In this document: piece by piece, positions 31,418-62,268 of the stretch
Position numbering within the stretch: position 1 is the first letter of the stretch
Layout of the letters: the number at the start of each line of letters is the position of its first letter
Assembly (NCBI GenBank): GCA_051047955.1
Contig: JBPGPT010000004.1
Span: forward strand, 62,001 to 126,000
Length of the DNA stretch: 64,000 bases
Origin: Cystobasidiomycetes sp. EMM_F5
Taxonomy: Eukaryota
Direction: 5' to 3'
The notes under the pieces: generated by a model
Databases searched by the model: none
What the model was told of the DNA's origin: nothing
What the model saw: the letters and a program-made list of their open reading frames with translations, nothing else
Made by a program: the position numbers and the translations under genes

Positions 31418-32930
31418 TCAGGCTTTACCCTTCTTGGATTTCTTGCTGCTAGTAGCGGTTTGCTGAGTACCTCCTTTCTTTGCCTTGTTGGCTTTGACAG
31501 CCGTAGCGGGACTAGAAGCTTGAGCCATGACTTGCTTCTGGTCCTTCTCGACCTGCATCTCCAACTTTTTCGCAGCTTCTCTTGCTTCCTTTTCGTGCTT
31601 CTTGTCCTCTTCCTGCTTTTCGGGCAGCGTCTTTACATAACCGTCAAAGTCGTACTCGATGCCCAACTCCCGAAGCTTGCGACGCTTCTTTGACTCCCTC
31701 TTGACTAATCTGTTTGCAATGCTGTCTTTCTGCTCTTGCGTCTTTGGCTGTACCGATTGAAAAGCAGTGATTAGCTGAAGAGCATATCGATCTGGAGAAC
31801 ACAGTGCCTGCATACCGCATTATGTTTCATCCGCTCAATCCTGCCTTTGGGTACTGGCCTGAAGGTCTTGTTTGCGCCGATCCACATCTTGGGATGAATT
31901 TCGTCCGAAGGGACAACTTTGCATTGGAGGATGTGGCCATGTAGGAGGTAGTTGTCCATCGTCTCGCTGACAATCTGCGCAACGGAGTCGTGTTCGAATT
32001 CGATGAATGCATAATGTCTCGATGACCCGGTCTGTGCGGGCAAAGTGAGAATCATGTCGACCGAGATTATCTGATTGTCAGGCTCACCTTCTTGTTGCGG
32101 GCTAGTCTCAATCGTATAACTGTCCCGAATTGCGTAAAGTACGACCGCATCTCATCTTCGTGGAAACCGTGTGGTATTCTTCCAAGGTAAATTACTCCTG
32201 GCGTAGACTTCTATAGGCGACTACTATGTCAGCCAGGTTCTGCGGGATCAACACGACCGAGACATGCCTTGTCCTTCTTGCCCGACTTTGTAGCTACAGC
32301 TTTACCACTCGACTTTGGTTCTGGCAATTCCTTTGCCGTGACGACCTGGCCGTCTTGTTCCTCGTCAGAGCTGTCTTGCCCGTCCTCATCATCATCCTCA
32401 TCAGACCCGCTTTCGAAGCCTGCAAGGAAGTCAATTTCTCCTTCATCTGCGTTATCAGCAGCCTTTGATGTGCTAGCTGATGTTGAAGACTCGGCATGTG
32501 GCTCGTTGTCGATATTTTCAGTATCGACATCTTCATCTTCATCCACGTCGGATGCTTTACGCTTCTTGCTCGCTGCCTTGCCTTTGCTACTGCCATTTGA
32601 CGTCTTGAGCAGGCTCTTCTCTGGCTTGACCTTGCTATCTTTATGTTTTGGCGAAAACTTTTTGCTGCCATTCACCTCGTCCTCGTCAAAGACTTCGGTT
32701 GTGACTTGGCCAGTCTTGCCGTTCGTCTTGGATCCAGATGCTGCACGCCTGCCTCTGACGGGGCTGCCTTTGCTGGCTGGACCAGGAGACCCAGTCGAAA
32801 TTCGGACTTTGCGGTTGCTGCTCGTCACGACGCCGTCTACGCTCAGCTCACTCCGTTGGGCTGCGGAAGGTGTCCCGTCCTGGCTCATTGCCAGCTCGTC
32901 CTTTGGTGCCCGCTTCCCTGCTTTTGCCAT
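31418..32930 (-). CDS. NOP15: Nucleolar RRM protein Nop15/NIFK (60S biogenesis), multi-exon
   Basis: [95 protein letters not shown]. Confidence 0.93.
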
Positions 32931-33327: not shown

Positions 33328-34086
33328 ATGCTGACAGCTCGCAAAAGGTTGACAGCAAGAAGCGCAGCTATTCTGTCCCTTCTGACGTTTTTGCTACCTT
33401 CAATCCTCGGTAAGTCCTGCTGATTCGGCAAAGCCAGTCGAAGAGACGGTACTAAGATGGTGTCTGTTAGCATACCTACTCACAGTAATACCTCTTTCAC
33501 AACACCCGCAATCTGCGAACACGTACTCCGACATACTGAGTTGGTTGATCCAGCTTACGGTAGGGTCGCATACCCTCCCGGATCATCACAGCTATCTCCA
33601 CAGGCGGAAAACCGACTCCACTCCTCCAACAGTGATCGAGCAATGTACATGGACAAGTCCCATAGAACAAGGCCAAAGGCCAATCCCCTTAAAGTACGCT
33701 TCATCGACTGTTCATCGATCAAGATAACGAAAGCTGACATTCACATTGCGGGCAACTCTTTGCAGCATAGTCATAGGCCTCTCAGTGGGCGGAGCGGCGG
33801 GAAGTGGGTTGATTCTATTTGACAGTTTGCCCTGATGGAAGCTAATCTAATTCTCGGCAATAGTGGTTGTACGTGCTAACTGTAGCCCCATACGGGCCCA
33901 ATTCTTTATCAGCTGACATAGATTTTACCTAGATCTTCTCGTTTGCCGCTTTCAAGGTGAGCTCTGGTCCTTTTTAGTACGTCTACGGCTGCTGATGTCG
34001 CGCACGCTTAGACTGGTGCAGCCCATCGAAACCGAATGATGGGCGGAGGCGGGATGATGGGTGGTGGCATGATGGGTGGATACTAA
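33328..34086 (+). CDS. Hypothetical small type-I membrane protein, family B member 1 (148 aa; 6 exons incl. 5-nt microexon)
   Basis: Exons 33328-33409, 33471-33693, 33766-33803, 33864-33868, 33933-33956, 34012-34086 (447 nt), all GT-AG; MLTARKRLTARSAAILSLLTFLLPSILA...LHRRK...CTWTSPIEQGQRPIPLNIVIGLSVGGAAGMVIFSFAAFKTG...MMGGGMMGGY*. Confidence 0.72.
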
Positions 34087-34287
34087 TATGTATACCAATC
34101 GTGCCTAAACATGTCATGTCGCTCAAAAACATCAAGCAACTGTATCCGTTTGAGCGGAGGCCATATTACCATAATTCCGTGCTCTATTCATCGCTGCTCT
34201 ACATACGGGCGTAGGCCTCCAAACCATACTTCTGCGTGATACAGACTGAACTCTGACAAGCCGGACACGAACGGAATGTCGTGCATC

Positions 34288-34891
34288 TCACCGGCGGCTC
34301 CATTCCGGCTTCGGCATGGAGACCGTCTGTGGGGATGCAGAAACCGGTGCTGAGCTGTACATCTCCAGCTGTCCCAAGATGATGCGTAACGGGGCATGTT
34401 GTGAACGCTTGAGTGTATCGATCTTGGGTTGTTCACGCAGGCAGGCTCTTCGACTTTTACTGTCCAGGCAGGGTCGCTCGGTCATGGGTTCAGATACTTG
34501 GGAGCTCCTTGAGCTACTTCTTGGCCTTTTCGACGTAGTAGAAAGTCCGCTTGGCGATATTTTCAGCTACGATCATCGTTTGGCAAGCAGCTGGATGACC
34601 GAGGTGAGTTACTTCGACATCTGAACTCACATACTCTATACGTCGTAGATTCGAGACGTCGGGCTGTGGGATGGTTTCGAACACTGGATTAGCGGTATCC
34701 TCATTGGAAACTGAATCTGGATGCGATATTCCGCGCGTGACAATGTCCCAGATACGCGAAAGCAACTGCTGAAATGGACGTGTATCTATCTCTTCTGCGA
34801 CGTAGCGCTTGCTTTCGCCACGGTGAAGTTTGGCGATGCCATTGAGCTTTGAGTAGCATCGCCACAGCGCTTCCGGGGTAATGTCGGACAT
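34288..34891 (-). CDS. Possible orphan gene between the family B paralogs (structure uncertain)
   Basis: 125-aa ORF 34891-34514 (MSDITPEALWRCYSKL..FQQLLSRIWDIV) can be joined by a gtatgt..aag intron to the 34288-34485 frame; no recognisable motif. Confidence 0.3.
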
Positions 34892-35147
34892 AGTGCGCAG
34901 CCTTCACCGAATTACGGTCGGATACGTCTGGCATGCTAGTCACGGCATCGGCTCTTGCTCGCTCACCGACTGTCCCGTCTCCGGTCCTTGTCCCTTCCTC
35001 CCTTTCCCCTCTCAGCGTATATATTTGTCTAAAGACCATCATCCCGGTCCTCATCATCGTATCTATACCTCACGACCTTCAGAATCTTGTTCTATACACT
35101 GATCGACTTGTACAACCTGGACCGCAATATACATTAACACCTTAAAA

Positions 35148-36056
35148 ATGCCAAAATACCAAATGACAGCTCGCAGAGCCGCAGTGATGACTGCAATGGC
35201 ATTTGCTGTACCTATACTATTCTGTGAGCAATAAACTCTCCAGATGGAGCTGGTCGTTCTGACATCCATGCGCAGCTTTGTCTGTCCACTCACATCTTCA
35301 TCAACGCCATCAATCGCATCTAGTCAAATTCTCTCAAACATCATCAGCTGTGATATCACCTTTCGAGGTCCCTTTTGCAGCTCGACAAGTACTTCGACGA
35401 AGTCCCAAAGATGACAGCAGCGACGACTCTGATAAAAAGGACGGAAAAGATTCTGAGAACGCCAAGGATGACAAAACGAAAGACGAAAAGGACAGCAAAG
35501 ACGGGGAAAAGGGAAAAGATGACAAGGGTTCGGAAGACGATTCAAAAACAGACGATAAAAAGGGCGCCAAATCGTCCGATGACAAAGAAACATCCGATAA
35601 AAAGGGCGACAAATCGTCCGATGACAAAGAAACATCCAAACTTTCAAGCAACGACAAGCCAAGTAGTACCAAAGAGGGTGCTTCGCCGACTGGAACAGCT
35701 AGTTCGAGCAAAGCGACCAGCACGTCCACCGCAGCCGATACATGCGGGTGGAACGATGTGATCGAAGGGACGTACACAAAGCCTCTTTGGTAAGCTATCT
35801 CGACTTAGCCGTGGCATCAACATGTAGCTAATTGGCTCGACTGGCTTGACAGGCTTACTATCGGTATCAGCGCTGCCGGAATTTTTGGCATGCTGGTAAG
35901 CGAACTTCTCCGTCTTAGACGTGACTCCGTCCTAATTGCCCTTTTATGTTGCAGTTCACCGCCTTCACTGCTTTCCAGTACGGAAAGAGTAAGAACCCAG
36001 CTGGTGCCGGTGGTATGGGAGGCATGGGTGGCGCACCACCTCCACCAGGCTACTAA
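35148..36056 (+). CDS. Hypothetical type-I membrane protein, family B member 2 (244 aa; Asp/Lys-rich ectodomain)
   Basis: Exons 35148-35223, 35276-35789, 35853-35895, 35955-36056 (735 nt); MPKYQMTARRAAVMTAMAFAVPILFS...VLRRSPKDDS(D/K repeats)...CGWNDVIEGTYTKPLWLTIGISAAGIFGMLFTAFTAFQYG...GGMGGMGGAPPPPGY*. Confidence 0.8.
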
Positions 36057-36142: not shown

Positions 36143-36215
36143 ACTTTTGAACGGAGAAATGACTACTGTGCATTATAACGACTTTTGAACGAAGAGATGA
36201 CTACTCTGCATATAA
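36143..36215. repeat. Imperfect 2-copy tandem repeat, 38-bp period
   Basis: acttttgaacggagaaatgactactgtgcat at 36143 vs acttttgaacgaagagatgactactctgcat at 36181. Confidence 0.8.
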
Positions 36216-36285: not shown

Positions 36286-37408
36286 TCATTTCCAGCTGAG
36301 ATCATACTGCTGTGTCGTGGGCACCTTGTCGTGCCATGCCTGTAAAGCTTGTAAGGCGGCTTCGCCCCAATCGAAGTCACTACCAGCGTTACCCTCAGAT
36401 GCCGAAGTTGGCTTATCGACGTAAATGATGATGTCGCCATTTTCTTTGCGGATGAACCCAGCATCTATAGCTCCTTTGACCATGTCTCGTAAAGGCGAGT
36501 AGAAGTTGTTTATATTGATTAGAACTACCGGCAGGGTGTGTATACGAAGCTGAGTCCAAGTAGTCATTTCAAGAATCTCCTCGAACGTCTGGTGGTCTGG
36601 ATCAGAGCGTGCTAAAGTGACGCCTGATGATGCGTATTCAAAATCACACTCACTCCGAAGCCACCGGGTAGTGCTACAAACCCTCGCTCTGCATATCTAG
36701 CCATCTCTTGCTTGCGCTCGTGCATCGTCTTGACTATCGAGACAATGCAGCGATCATTCTCGCTCGCCTCATCGGCTGAGGTTGGGTCATGGATGCCTTG
36801 ACCGTTGCTTTCACTCTTCGCAGCTCTGCTCTTCACAGCACGCTCGTGTGACATGAGTGCTTTTGGAATGATGCCTAGCACTCTGCCACCGGCCTCGTAC
36901 GTAGATTCGGCAACCGCGCCCATCTATGTACGTTTCAGCTTTATGTAGGTATATCACATTCGCGAAAGACGTACAAGGCCCCATGTTCCGCCGCCGTACA
37001 CTCTGTAATTTGGTAAGACAAGGATAAGATGAGATATAACATTTAGCAAGAAATCAAGATCGGGATAAAAGGGCATTAGTGATTGTATCAGTTGACGCAA
37101 TCTTCGCGTAACTTGCAGTGGGTATTGATGTTTGGCCAAGGCTTTTCCGACTTGTTGAGCCGCCAGCTTCGAAGATCATCATCGTAACACGAACACGTCA
37201 AGCTCTGCAGCCAACCCAAACGGCACTTCTCTCTCACCTCGAATTCTGGATCATTGCCAGTGCTGCTTCCACAGAAGACGCACACTGCGCCTCTCCATGA
37301 CTGGCTCGTCAGGATTCCTGCCGATGGAGGGCCGACGTCGACTTTGTGCTCGGAAGCCTTTTCGTCAACGACGCTTCTCGGAATTTCGGAGCTCTCCGCT
37401 GAGACCAT
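36286..37408 (-). CDS. LOG family nucleotide phosphoribohydrolase (YJL055W-like), multi-exon
   Basis: AVCVFCGSSTG, LVYGGGTWGL|MGAVA, GIIPKAL, TMHERKQEM, FVALPGGFG|TFEEILEMTTWTQL (PGGxGTxxE). Confidence 0.93.
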
Positions 37409-56152: not shown

Positions 56153-57165
56153 AGTCTGCGCAGCTGTGGACGGGGTAGTTGGGCAGCCTGGTGTTAGATC
56201 CTGCTATACTCTGCAGAATATTGAATGGACAAGTCTCAAAAACATCCCAAGAAAGCGGACGCGGAGCACAATGCGAAACTCTGGATTTCAAATTATCTGG
56301 ACGACATGAGCGCATTTCTAAGGTATTGCCATCTAACTCTGCTCGGTCTGATAGCCTCATGCTCGACTGTCAGAAAGAAGCGGGCCCCACTTGACGGGAC
56401 CAACTTTGAAGTTTGCCGTTATTGCGACTATCGCTCTTGAAGCCTGCTCCAAAGCAATAAAATGTCGCGCAAGCCACGTCTATTCCTGCACGTCGTCTGC
56501 GGATACCGAGCGAGATAACGTGGCTTTTTGAGGGTTTTGCGTCAAAAGACTCTTTTTCGTTGCGCATCTTCCTAGAGGATCCCGAGACCCAGGCATGTCG
56601 GGCGCAGAGGCTGATGCGGATACTCCAAATCCAAGTCGATGTCCGTCGAGGGTCGAGCCAGCTGATCTTATCACTTCGCAATTACGGGTAATTTAGACGG
56701 GATGCGATATAGTTAAATTGGTGCATTTGGGGCCGGTCGGGATTCGGATTGTGGGTAAGAACGATAAATGGACTTGAATGCATTCACGCTTTAGAGCTGA
56801 CGCGGGTTTATATCTCCTCGACAGACGTCTATCCCAACTGCCAGCTGCTGACCGTTTGCCGTTTGCCGTTCGTCCAGTTTACACCAGAGCGGTGTCACGC
56901 GTATAACCGACGGAAGAACCACTCAAACCAGGCAGCCAAATCGAAACATCCAAGCTCACTTTCATCCACCAATCCTTCCATACACTGACTATCCTCACCT
57001 TGCACTGTATCCGCATCGTCGGCAACGCTCCAATACCTTGCACCGCGAACCCTCCTACCCCTTTTTTGGTGGGGGCCCAGGTAAGCGCTCGAACGTACTA
57101 CCCACTCAAAGCCAACGCAACTGACTGAGTACACATCCACGCTCATTCAATACTGATACTCAATC

Positions 57166-60100
57166 ATGCCGTGCACAGTCATGCACTCGTCTCCCACTCG
57201 AGCTGAAAAGCTGCAGCCAGATCAGCAGCAGCAGCAGCAGCAGACCACGCAATCGTCCGACAATGCAGATCCATCAAGCTCGCCGGTTCTGTCTGCAACG
57301 CAACATCATGCGCTCGCTGTTGCTGTTGCTCAACATCACAGAGGATCTCGCTCCTCGAGCTGCAGCAGTGCCGTATCAACAATCTCCACGTCATCTACTA
57401 TATCCAACGATGCAGCATCTTCCACTTCCAAGAAGCGCAAAGCTCGGGCTTGTACCTCTATCAATGACGATTATGCAGTCGGTATACGTTTGTCAACAAC
57501 TACTGCCGCACTGCCACCGTTGAGCAGGTCAACGGTCCCCGGTCTCGAGCCATGCGTTTCGTCATATGCTCCGTCAACCTCGATACGGCACAATCATTTC
57601 ATTCAAGTTCCAAGCAGTAAGATCTCGGACACGAACAGTGTATCTCACGATATCCTCCTTCCTCCTTTCAAACGGACTCGTGTACAGGATGCGGCACACA
57701 ATGAACACTTCATAAAGGTCATTGAAGACCCGGACGCCCAGATGGCCACCGTTCCGGATACAAACGAAACGCACCCTCCTATATCTCCTGCACAACCAGC
57801 ATATTCAGCAGACTCGACGGCGTTTGGACGGAATCTGCCACTATTGCTTCGAGAGGAGATCGATGCCAGTAGGGCGCCTAGAACATCTCTACAGACACTC
57901 AGCGACAACGCGTCGCGGCAAAGCTGTAGTGACACGCTCGACCGACGTCACGTCGTACACGCCTTCGCAGATGACTCGACCATCAGAGAGGACTATCCTA
58001 GGAAGCGAGCATCGTCGTTACCTCTACAGGATGAAATCTATATCTTTGGTCGATCAAGGCGACCCAAACGGGATTTACGAAGGCAGATGGGGTCCATGGC
58101 ACACCGCACCAGTGAGACCCAGCCTATGTCAAATGGTATGCAACGACAATCTGGTGCCGCTATTCCCGTATCTCGCAAACAGATCAGCCAAGGTGATAAA
58201 GCTGGACTCGAGCGTGAGGAAGCGATTCAAATCGACATCCACGATTGTCCTCGTCGCGCGTCAGCTAATCCTAGTGGCATTCAAGCTGGCGCCCGTGGGA
58301 GTGCAGCAGTGCCTTCAACCAGTGCAGAGATCGCCGGGTATGCGCAATCCCAGAGAGTCTGCCACGCCAGTACATCGAAAGCGGCCGGTATGGGCTGTGG
58401 CAATGCCGCTCTCGAGCAGCCTCTGTCCCATACACAACTTGTCGCCCTTCATCAACTCAATCTACCTAGGCCTCCACTCCTTTTAACTTCATCCGCATCC
58501 AGTAGCGCTTCATCCGCTGCCTGCAATCAACCTCACTCGCGATCGCTATCACGGCATAGTATTCACGCGCGTAAAGCGTCAAATCTGCCGGGAGCGAACC
58601 AAGCATTGCGAGCGGTTGCTGCGACGTCAAATGCGCGCTCGCATGCTGTCACTATATCGAGTACTACGTTGAGCGTTCCTTCTCTCAATCCACCCATCAC
58701 GAAAGAGACGATGAAGGAGCTTGATCTGAGCGAGGTTTTGCAATGTCGTCAGTTAAGGCACGATGTGGTCTTTGATGTCAACCTAGCATTCCGCCCCAAC
58801 CTCGATGGAGACCGGTACGAATTTCCACCGCCTACTTGCTACTATCCAGCTGACTTTAAGAATAGTGGAGATCGAAAGCGAGAAGCCGCAGACCGATATT
58901 GGGAGGCTCTAGCCCGTGAACTGGACACCGGATGTAGGTGTACGACCTATCCGCACCCGCCGTCTGCTGCCGCTCTTCATCTCGGTAAGAAATCGCTATC
59001 ACTACCGTGCATATGCCGTCCCGCGATATCACCTGCGTCCATTGCTATGACAGTACCGGCCGGCCTGGCTACGCGTTTGCCGTCGCGAGTACATGCGCTT
59101 GTCGTTGCGCTGCGTGATATTTTACTGTCCATCGTGCCATCGAACGACGATACGGCAACTTCGACAACACCTGGCAAGGGCACACATGAACTTTTGAAGG
59201 ACACGCTCGATGCGGATCTCATCGCGCAAGAAGTGGCTCATGGTGTATACGACATCAGCGCGCTTGCACTATACTTGGGTCACCTTTTGAAGACACATTG
59301 CGCGCCTATGCGGGACGAAATGATCGATAACATGGTGCAAGCCATTCAGTGCGGCCAGCAGAAGAACGACTCTATTGCTGTTGCGACTGGCCTCCGGAAA
59401 TGCTTCAGTGTCCTGGAACTCATGAAACTTGACATTGCAAACCATCAGCTTCGAACGCTCAGGCCCTGGCTTTTGGAAACTGCTGCAGAATTTCAGTTGA
59501 ATAGCTTCTGCGAGTCTGCTATGGCTAAGGACTTCTCGGAAACGACGAAGCGAACGTCTGACTGGATTCGGAAAGCGATACAGAGTGCTACGACGCAAGA
59601 AGAAACAGCAAGCTACGCCTCAGACAACCTGCTTGATATTGTGTCCTGTGGAATTATGGACCTATTGTTCAGTGCGGAGGCATATGACCCGGCCGCAAGG
59701 CTCGAAGAGAAGACTGCGTCGTCAGGGCTTCATGCGTCGAGGACAGCTGAACAAGTAGCCAATGCACAACGTCGAAGTCGAGATAGGCGAGCACGTGTGC
59801 CACCGCTGCTATCGGCATCACAGATACCGGAGACGTTATCCCTCGATTCCGCTCGCCTACAAGCGCTACATGCAGACATCGTGGAAGCATGTGTCATCCA
59901 CCTCCTAGTCCTACTTTATCGACAGTTACGAGCATCCGCCCATCGTGGTCCTGCAAGTGTGGTCGAGATCGACAAGCTTCACGCCGAGATCCGTGTCATA
60001 GTGACAGACCTCAACATCAACGCGGCTTCGTTACCGACTGACATCCGCAAGCTTCGCCATAGCACGTGGCAGGAGAGCATGAAGCCTGCTCTTCTCCACC

Positions 60101-60519
60101 TAGCGAATCGAGCAGCTCCGCCGGATTCGCCCACAGTACCAGACCAAGCAACGCTCGACCTGCTCTACTCGTGGTGGAACAAAAATGTAGATCCAGACGG
60201 GAGTTTGGTGAGGTAGTCAGTAGATAGAAGCAGTCATGAGTGCTAATCACCTTTTCGATAGTTCCAGCTAGTAAAGATGCGCATTCGTGCCACAGTAGCC
60301 GGGCTGGTTCGTGGATATCTGGAATCTATACGGAAAATCAAGTGCTCTAGCGTCTCAAATTCCGGGCCACTCCACGCTGTGGAGCGCACGGAGCGCGCTG
60401 CAGCGCTGCCTGATCTACATGGCCACATCCGACCGATTGCGGAACGCATCGCAAACATCGTCGAATTTAACGAGCGCGCTTACCGCACCCTGTATCTGAC
60501 TTTGCTCAATTCTAATTAG
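57166..60519 (+). CDS. SOK1: T-complex 11 (Tcp11) family protein, Sok1-like; start 57166 or 57181 (possible 5' intron 57081-57178)
   Basis: PPITKETMKELDLSEVLQCRQLRHDVVFDVNLAFRPNLDG..RKREAADRYW, LDADLIAQEV, LLKTHCAPMRD, FSVLELMKLDIANHQLRTLRP, IPETLSLDSARL, FNERAYRTLY. Confidence 0.9.
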
Positions 60520-61693: not shown

Positions 61694-62268
61694 ATGAGCA
61701 CGAATCAAAGCAAGCCGGTCCAGCCAGATGTGACCGGGCAGGGCTCGCGCCCTCGGGTTTATGCGCATACGAACACATTACCTATTCCGCACAATCCACA
61801 CAGGTCAGCCATCTGTAAGACTATCATGTAAACGAAGAATCGACTGCTGACACACATGGTACTTTGCGCTCTGAAAGTCCTGCAGGACAGTCAGTCAAAA
61901 CCCCAAGGACTTCAAGCTCAAGCCCAAGCAGGAAAGGTACGCCGTCCTTGTCCGCTGACATAAGGGCGTCTGAGATACGTGTCGCTTCTGTGACTCGCAG
62001 GCGCAGTCTTTCGCCGCAAGATCGTTCGCCAAGCCCTGTTCGGATTCAAGCATTGAGTATGTTAGGGCGGGCAGGACGCCGCATTAGCGGATGCGCAACT
62101 GCTTGCATGGACTGCATTATAGTCGAAGATTCAGCGGATCAAGAAGGTCAGGATCGGGAACCGCTCCTTGCCAGACGAAACCGCATTTTAGTCACTCGCG
62201 GATATGTCGCACAGCAAAGGGGAATGGCATACGAGCAATCCAGAGCAGAGAGAAGAGAAGCTTCATAG
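61694..62268 (+). CDS. Hypothetical small protein, family C member 2 (166 aa, 2 exons)
   Basis: Exons 61694-61803 and 61878-62268 (intron gtcagc..gctgac..aaag), 501 nt in frame; GRRISGCATACMDCIIVEDSADQEGQDREPLLARR...GMAY. Confidence 0.6.

Follow-up and report, generated by a model that had tools for sequence, protein, structure and literature searches.

The 64,000-nucleotide (nt) window analyzed here, positions 62,001 to 126,000 of contig JBPGPT010000004.1 from Cystobasidiomycetes sp. EMM_F5, carries two small, intron-dense genes, g1 (33328-34086) and g2 (35148-36056; window coordinates, both on the plus strand), that we interpret as paralogs encoding predicted single-pass (bitopic) membrane proteins. 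Judged from their sequence features, they form a genuine, old, and diverged pair without a counterpart in the collections searched, generic in its bitopic layout and unusual in its Gly-Gly-Met-like (GGM) tail. A sequence-only reading of this DNA had described the pair as hidden in the open reading frame (ORF) track, and neither gene is a single ORF; the longest pieces are the exon 2 ORFs of 113 (g1) and 176 (g2) codons. Exon models were built from canonical splice signals with guidance from the paralog. Splicing of g1 removes five introns from 759 nt and leaves a 447-nt stop-free coding sequence (CDS) of 148 amino acids (aa), and splicing of g2 removes three introns and leaves a 735-nt stop-free CDS of 244 aa (Table 1). 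Both are very probably real genes.

Local alignment of the two proteins gave a score of 100, compared with 29.2 ± 4.7 for shuffled sequences (z = 15; 0 of 2,000 shuffles reached 100). The similarity persists at a z of 8.7 when a putative 5-nt micro-exon of g1 is left out, so the paralogy is independent of that exon. By blastp, the proteins are 39% identical over 62 aa of the C-terminal module, and the leaders match at 14 of 36 positions. The paralogy proposed in the sequence-only reading is thus borne out by the shuffles, and the conclusion that g1 and g2 are true paralogs of one small protein family is supported at the sequence level.

Both predicted proteins follow the same order. A basic, TAR-containing start leads into a hydrophobic leader and a phase-1 intron, and beyond it lies a His cluster with four to five His per 11 residues (residues 61-71 of g1, HxxxxHHxxxH; residues 30-40 of g2, HxHxHxxHxxH). 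Exactly one Lys/Arg-Arg site is found on the predicted luminal side of each protein, an RR at residues 72-73 (g1) or 66-67 (g2), and the residue at P4 of this site is aliphatic in both (L in g1, V in g2). The sequence-only reading had put the region before CxW at ~10 aa in one gene and ~120 aa in the other. Measured from RR to the Cys of this motif, the segment spans 12 aa for g1 and 114 aa for g2, where it is first Asp/Lys/Ser rich and then Ser/Thr rich (26 Asp, 25 Lys, 24 Ser, and 11 Thr). Next come, in both proteins, a CxW...IE..PL motif with a single Cys, a phase-2 intron straight after the PL, a Gly-zipper-like transmembrane (TM) helix with the motif IGxSxxGxxGM, a phase-0 intron after GM[VL], the motif xAFxxG, and a Gly/Met tail that ends in GY and a stop codon. 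The tail after the helix is 25 aa long in g1, where it begins in exon 5 (10 Gly, 6 Met, and 0 Pro), and 26 aa long in g2 (only 2 Met). Three introns are common to g1 and g2 in position and phase, and g1 has two extra introns. The features originally listed for the pair (the TAR leader, the phase-1, -2, and -0 introns, CxW..IE..PL, the TM motif, and the GY tail) are accordingly all present at their positions.

Across 56 aligned codons, the proportion of synonymous differences (pS) is 0.83, which is saturated, and that of nonsynonymous differences (pN) is 0.50. We detected no nucleotide similarity between the g1 and g2 loci besides one 12-mer at the start of the coding regions. Because synonymous sites are saturated, the duplication must be old, and the survival of the motifs, the tail length, the stop position, and three intron positions implies that both copies have been under selection for most of that time. 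Consistent with coding function, the g2 frame has the best codon usage score of the six frames (0.176, with 0.034 to 0.194 for five long training ORFs used as controls).

Predicted topology and the proposed association module

Each protein has two hydrophobic peaks, with a mean Kyte-Doolittle (KD) hydropathy of 1.8 to 2.2 over 19 aa. The first lies in the leader (residues 13-31 of g1, mean KD 2.23; residues 11-29 of g2, mean KD 2.06) and is preceded by only 10 to 12 residues, a start that suits an endoplasmic reticulum (ER) signal better than a mitochondrial presequence. In both genes, small residues follow a Pro located four residues ahead of the exon 1 end, and under the −3/−1 rule, small residues near Pro fit a signal cleavage region. 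The C-terminal helix is followed by three (g1) or two (g2) Lys/Arg residues and no Asp/Glu and is preceded by one Lys/Arg and one or two Asp/Glu. Because the basic flank of a TM helix faces the cytosol (the positive-inside rule), this charge asymmetry would place the tail in the cytosol. Based on these features, we consider it reasonably probable that g1 and g2 encode secretory-pathway membrane proteins with cytosolic tails. A single-sequence fold of g1 exon 2 yielded one helix and no domain at a mean predicted local distance difference test score (pLDDT) of 53.7, which, as weak evidence, is consistent with a lack of any globular ectodomain in that exon.

From this layout, we propose a working scheme for the two products. 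Exon 1 would serve as an ER signal of about 27 residues, followed by a luminal or extracellular, His-rich pro-region of about 40 aa that is closed by RR. Kex2-type cleavage at RR is possible, given the aliphatic P4 residues and the similar positions of the two sites; RR is less favorable for Kex2 than KR is. A spacer of free length, consisting of 12 aa in g1 and of a charged, Ser/Thr-rich, 114-aa stalk in g2, would then separate RR from a conserved core in which the single-Cys juxtamembrane motif (CxW..IE..PL) is followed by a TM helix that has a small residue at every fourth position (G/A-xxx-G). On the other side of the membrane, a cytosolic tail of fixed length (25/26 aa) would run from a basic segment through a GGM-like one to a terminal Tyr. 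In g2, the small-xxx-small face of the helix reads G-xxx-A-xxx-G; for g1, the micro-exon model gives G-xxx-G-xxx-G.

The juxtamembrane Cys motif, the helix face, and the length and ending of the tail are conserved, whereas the spacer and most of the pro-region vary freely, and for this reason we read the module as an association unit. The core would mediate self-association or partner binding, with helices packing via their small-residue faces, and the outer Cys may lock a dimer. The flexible, Met-bearing tail could make weak hydrophobic contacts on the cytosolic side; according to passages of one report, the GGM repeats of GroEL and of its organellar homologues are flexible tails that display Met (PMC12571646). 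The g1 and g2 products would be small accessory or scaffold subunits, not enzymes or adhesins. The sequence-only reading had raised a possible receptor or adhesin pair, and the g1 ectodomain argues against an adhesin, since only 12 aa and a 17-aa juxtamembrane motif are predicted to follow the RR. Likewise, the long insert of g2 reads as an Asp/Lys/Ser-rich low-complexity stalk and not as a binding domain; its in-frame 42-nt tandem repeat is a sign of recent growth. We offer the oligomerizing accessory-subunit mechanism tentatively, as somewhat less likely than not. The broader picture, an old duplicate pair of type I membrane proteins with a self-association or partner-binding core, is close to an even call and falls slightly short of one.

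Several observations weigh against this picture. The TM sequence of g1 rests on a 5-nt micro-exon that was picked for its best fit to g2, and 56 other stop-free models exist. The earlier claim of a dibasic site in each protein stands insofar as there is one luminal RR in each at a similar position (72 versus 66), but no local alignment brings them together; the sole local similarity at the g1 RR pairs HSYLHRR with HSHLHQR at g2 residues 30-36, away from the RR of g2. With the first acceptor of intron 1 in use, g1 has a hydrophobic leader of 25 residues, which would also fit an uncleaved anchor. For g1, codon usage does not favor the proposed frame (0.024, versus 0.040 for another frame), and no homologue was found in the collections searched.

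The leader is central to the alternative that survives best, in which both proteins keep uncleaved N-terminal anchors and are either two-TM hairpins with both ends in the cytosol or mitochondrial inner-membrane proteins with a bipartite presequence, and RR is not a processing site. Although the leader starts are Arg/Lys rich and free of acidic residues (+4 over 12 residues for g1, +3 over 10 for g2), this basic stretch ahead of the core is short for a matrix-targeting signal. The 25-residue stretch of g1 equals the length of a TM segment; however, the core is very hydrophobic (mean KD, 2.1 to 2.2), which favors the signal recognition particle (SRP) and the ER, and the Pro four residues before the exon 1 end, with its small residues, fits a cleavage region. 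Small mitochondrial membrane proteins often have Gly-rich TM helices, but a Ser/Thr-rich stalk before the TM helix, as in g2, is typical of O-glycosylated fungal surface proteins. On balance, we regard uncleaved anchors as a minority possibility for this pair.

Splice signals and the putative micro-exon of g1

All eight proposed introns of g1 and g2 are GT..AG introns of 52 to 72 nt, and seven of the eight have a CTRAY motif 13 to 28 nt from the 3' end. The exception is g1 intron 1, in which CTAAG occurs about 14 nt from the 3' end; this intron also has a second in-frame acceptor at 33485, the use of which would drop five leader residues. Among frame-joining intron candidates identified heuristically across the window, 40 of 99 cluster at 43 to 75 nt, and the other 59 are spread flat over 83 to 238 nt. 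Since the flat remainder resembles noise, we take the local intron norm to be about 60 nt.

In g1, both the GM of the TM motif and the phase-0 intron said to fall at the same residue in the two genes depend on splicing in the micro-exon at 33864-33868; for g1, this claim is therefore conditional. All 57 stop-free GT[AG]..[CTA]AG models of g1 from the Cys codon to the stop were enumerated and scored against the g2 module. The micro-exon model came out on top with a score of 91, followed by 75 for the next model, and the model with a single 148-nt intron and no micro-exon scored 60. Passages of one report (PMC12940212) mention fungal micro-exons of 1 and 8 nt and use an "intron" of more than twice the median length as a micro-exon telltale.

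These scores bear on a second alternative, namely, that only g2 is functional and that g1 is decaying or is spliced otherwise, for example, through one 148-nt intron (33785-33932) that would leave a TM helix eight residues shorter, with the micro-exon a fitting artifact. The micro-exon model was indeed selected by its similarity to g2, but the single-intron model requires an intron of more than twice the local norm, outside the 43- to 75-nt cluster, and leaves a hydrophobic stretch of about 13 to 17 residues, which is short for a membrane span. Five introns are needed in 759 nt, and none of the eight introns has a weaker donor than g1 intron 3 (GTGGGT); yet the introns flanking the micro-exon are typical in length (60 and 64 nt) and have branch-site motifs. 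Finally, the codon usage of g1 is uninformative, whereas its frame stays open over all six exons to the common GY-stop, and an unconstrained copy should have lost its frame by the time synonymous sites were saturated. We judge decay or alternative splicing of g1 to be unlikely.

Two side observations concern the coding sequences of the pair. An identical 12-nt string (TGACAGCTCGCA) occurs at 33332-33343 and at 35164-35175, over the TAR codons. It directly follows the start codon of g1, and in g2 it follows the second in-frame ATG. This common 12-mer may point to a true g2 start at 35163 or to an RNA-level constraint near the start. Separately, one frame of g1 intron 5 (33976-33996) encodes a seven-residue string identical to the residues preceding the g2 Cys (tblastn E value of 40). 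This match, which is Ser/Thr/Ala rich, was judged to be due to chance.

Family searches and likeness to known systems

The Pfam, homologue, and PDB searches were run on single-exon translations, and the conserved module extends across several exons. Scanned against Pfam, the four longest translations scored meaningfully for no family; the TM helix itself is divided among two to four exons. A word-index search with g2 exon 2, which includes the CxW end, returned 158 candidates, none at an E value of ≤0.01, and a homologue search with residues 1-60 of this exon returned one candidate, none at an E value of ≤1. For g1 exon 2, phmmer found 0 matches at an E value of ≤0.001 among 1.84 billion representatives, and the ESM Atlas held no usable match. 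Among metagenome contigs, none of 206 pattern matches to g1 exon 2 was confirmed, nor was any of 344 to an exon of the neighboring LOG-family gene. PDB sequence searches with the exon translations gave one chance-level match, at an E value of 0.73, and otherwise none. These null results are weak, given that a 16-aa motif cannot lift a 73-aa query to significance, that g1 exon 2 would not find g2 itself, and that the nearest named relative of a conserved neighbor is only 41% identical. They indicate only that no close orthologue is present in the collections. Within these exon-by-exon limits, the statement in the sequence-only reading that the pair belongs to no recognized family agrees with our Pfam, PDB, and homologue searches. 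Further copies were sought in the 64-kb window by motif scan and tblastn, and only g1 and g2 were found.

Metal or oxidative-stress handling or sensing was considered as a third alternative, with an outer His cluster and an inner Met-rich tail binding Cu, Zn, or Ag, or with Met as an oxidizable sink. Met/His motifs are ligands in copper transporters, and Met-rich low-complexity regions can be redox sensitive. However, the four to five His within 11 residues precede RR in both proteins and would be cut off if RR is used, and the two clusters align poorly, save for one 7-mer at different positions. The tail has six Met in g1 but only two in g2, and Met-based Cu(I) sites are typical of oxidizing compartments, not of the cytosol. 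With no metal-binding family matched in the Pfam scan of the exon translations, we find such a role improbable.

The overall layout resembles that of small bitopic membrane proteins of animals such as glycophorin A and syndecan, in which a small-xxx-small TM face drives dimerization. Points of likeness are a predicted signal peptide, an ectodomain that varies freely in length and is disordered and prone to glycosylation, a basic site on the outer side, the TM face itself, and a conserved cytosolic tail that is short and has an aromatic residue at its end. In contrast to these proteins, g1 and g2 have a GGM-like tail and a single conserved Cys-x-Trp just outside the membrane, and no sequence relationship is expected. 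In fungal single-pass surface sensors of the Mid2, Wsc, and SKG6-TM types, a signal peptide is followed by a stalk rich in Ser/Thr, a single Gly-rich TM helix, and a tail in the cytosol. The predicted g2 protein is in keeping with this plan, but g1 is practically stalkless, the tails of 25/26 aa lack a known signaling motif, and there is no Cys-rich WSC domain. The long Ser/Thr-rich ectodomain of Mid2/SKG6-type proteins is found in neither, the g2 spacer being dominated by Asp and Lys and that of g1 only 12 aa long.

The tails recall those of GroEL, mitochondrial Hsp60, and Cpn60, for which passages of PMC12571646 describe a C-terminal Gly-Gly-Met-like run that is flexible and offers Met side chains for weak hydrophobic contacts. 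Unlike those tails, the repeat of g1 and g2 is carried on a membrane helix, is irregular (MMGGGG.. and GGMGGMGG), terminates in Tyr, and has four Pro after it in g2. No Cpn60 or other Pfam domain was found in the exon translations of either gene, and the likeness is one of composition only; on that score, the chaperonin tail is the sole analogue known for the g1 and g2 tails. A chaperonin-like GGM tail on a membrane anchor was not found described in our literature searches. A PPxY sequence within the terminal PPPPGY of g2, on the predicted cytosolic side, invites comparison with PY-motif (PPxY) membrane adaptors of Rsp5/Nedd4 ligases, such as yeast Sna3 and Bsd2. The g1 tail differs in having no Pro, and PPxY is therefore not part of the conserved core.

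In Kex2-processed fungal secretory precursors, as in the layout predicted for the pair, a signal peptide is followed by a short pro-region that ends in a dibasic site, the P4 residue of which is aliphatic. They differ in that g1 and g2 have one site only and no repeats and that the product would remain membrane bound. A more elaborate scenario would make the pair a new family of processed single-pass membrane proteins: kexin would release a His-rich peptide to the cell exterior, the remaining membrane stub would pair with its paralog through a juxtamembrane disulfide and a glycine zipper, and the GGM tail would act as a cytosolic sensor of hydrophobic clients, redox state, or metal. If true, the released peptide and tethered sensor would amount to a two-sided signaling or quality-control device without a counterpart in model fungi; we hold this scenario to be very improbable. 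Two membrane layouts were rejected outright. Glycosylphosphatidylinositol (GPI)-anchored proteins have a hydrophobic stretch at the extreme C terminus and tail-anchored proteins lack an N-terminal signal; in g1 and g2, the helix precedes a polar stretch of 25/26 residues, and the N terminus has a hydrophobic leader.

That the frames were assembled by chance through free choice of splice sites is scarcely credible, even with no homologue outside the window in the searches run, as motif order, three intron phases, tail length, and GY-stop are held in common at z scores of 8.7 to 15 over shuffles, g2 needs just three strong introns around a 176-codon ORF, and the g2 frame has a coding-type codon score.

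Genomic setting and meaning of the pair

The region from 33328 to 36056 is ordinary fungal chromosomal DNA. ORFs of the window have Pfam domains of housekeeping type, including PEPCK, prolidase, TRAPPC9, APC3, DENR, dual-specificity phosphatase, LOG, PP2C, dynamitin, biotin synthase, and Tcp11. The Tcp11/SOK1-like ORF (57157-60216) has an identical entry in the protein collection (P0001; 1,016 aa). Its top named match is from Cystobasidium minutum at 41% identity, and its top unnamed matches are at 42 to 44%. These relatives place the organism in the Pucciniomycotina, and the low identity of the top named one suggests that no close relative is present in the collections and that the lineage is poorly sampled.

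g1 and g2 are not adjacent, as a minus-strand gene without a recognizable family sits between them; this gene had no Pfam match and no usable match in the ESM Atlas. Each paralog shares a divergent upstream region with a minus-strand gene, g1 with one and g2 with another, and these two neighbors are unrelated to each other. Duplication of a block that included the minus-strand neighbors was rejected (nothing below an E value of 0.69 by tblastx). Features of the pair and its surroundings are collected in Table 1.

Table 1. Predicted exons, introns, repeats, and neighboring genes of the g1-g2 locus (window coordinates)
Feature	Position	Strand	Description
g1 exon 1	33328-33409	+	Start codon, basic n-region (two TAR), hydrophobic leader; phase 1 end
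g1 intron 1	33410-33470	+	61 nt, GTAAGT..TAG
g1 exon 2	33471-33693	+	Pro-region: His cluster 33569-33601, RR 33602-33607, CxW..IE..PL from 33644; phase 2 end
g1 intron 2	33694-33765	+	72 nt, GTACGC..CAG, CTGAC branch site 28 nt from 3' end
g1 exon 3	33766-33803	+	TM helix residues 1-12; phase 1 end
g1 intron 3 (g1 specific)	33804-33863	+	60 nt, GTGGGT..TAG, CTAAT 13 and 18 nt from 3' end
g1 putative micro-exon	33864-33868	+	5 nt; completes Met codon, adds Val; restores GM[VL] and phase-0 junction
g1 intron 4	33869-33932	+	64 nt, GTACGT..TAG, CTGAC 16 nt from 3' end; position and phase as g2 intron 3
g1 exon 5	33933-33956	+	TM helix end and first basic tail residue
g1 intron 5 (g1 specific)	33957-34011	+	55 nt, GTGAGC..TAG, CTGAT 16 nt from 3' end
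g1 exon 6	34012-34086	+	Basic stretch, Gly/Met tail, GY, TAA stop
Repeat in g1 exon 6	34036-34074	+	18 nt × 2.2
Lys/Asp/Ser-rich ORF	32229-32930	−	Divergent from g1; no Pfam match
Gene between paralogs	34188-34891	−	First exon ORF 34514-34891, ATG start near 34891
g2 exon 1	35148-35223	+	Start codon, second in-frame ATG at 35163, TAR, hydrophobic leader; phase 1 end
g2 intron 1	35224-35275	+	52 nt, GTGAGC..CAG, CTGAC 13 nt from 3' end
g2 exon 2	35276-35789	+	His cluster 35287-35319, RR 35395-35400, stalk 35401-35742, CxW..IE..PL from 35743; phase 2 end
Tandem repeat in g2 stalk	35546-35637	+	42 nt × 2.2, in frame, 94% matches
g2 intron 2	35790-35852	+	63 nt, GTAAGC..CAG, CTAAT 21 nt from 3' end
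g2 exon 3	35853-35895	+	TM helix residues 1-14 (IGxSxxGxxGM); phase 0 end
g2 intron 3	35896-35954	+	59 nt, GTAAGC..CAG, CTAAT 19 nt from 3' end
g2 exon 4	35955-36056	+	TM helix end, two Lys, Gly/Met/Pro tail, PPPPGY, TAA stop
Tandem repeat	36143-36215		38 nt, 1.9 copies, 88% matches; 3' flank of g2, before convergent LOG-family gene
LOG ("possible lysine decarboxylase") family exon	36286-36696	−	PF03641, E value 4.7e-15; convergent with g2

Most likely, g1 and g2 encode lineage-restricted type I membrane proteins that act via their juxtamembrane-TM-tail module. If confirmed, they would be two genes missing from the protein collections searched, from a poorly sampled fungal lineage, and g1 has likely been missed by gene callers because of its putative 5-nt micro-exon. 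They would also define a family of small membrane proteins that is restricted to its lineage and joins a membrane anchor to a chaperonin-like GGM tail. The value of the finding would lie chiefly in the annotation of small, intron-dense genes and of micro-exons. Its importance is modest, and the pair lends itself to work on the role of conserved juxtamembrane-TM-tail modules.

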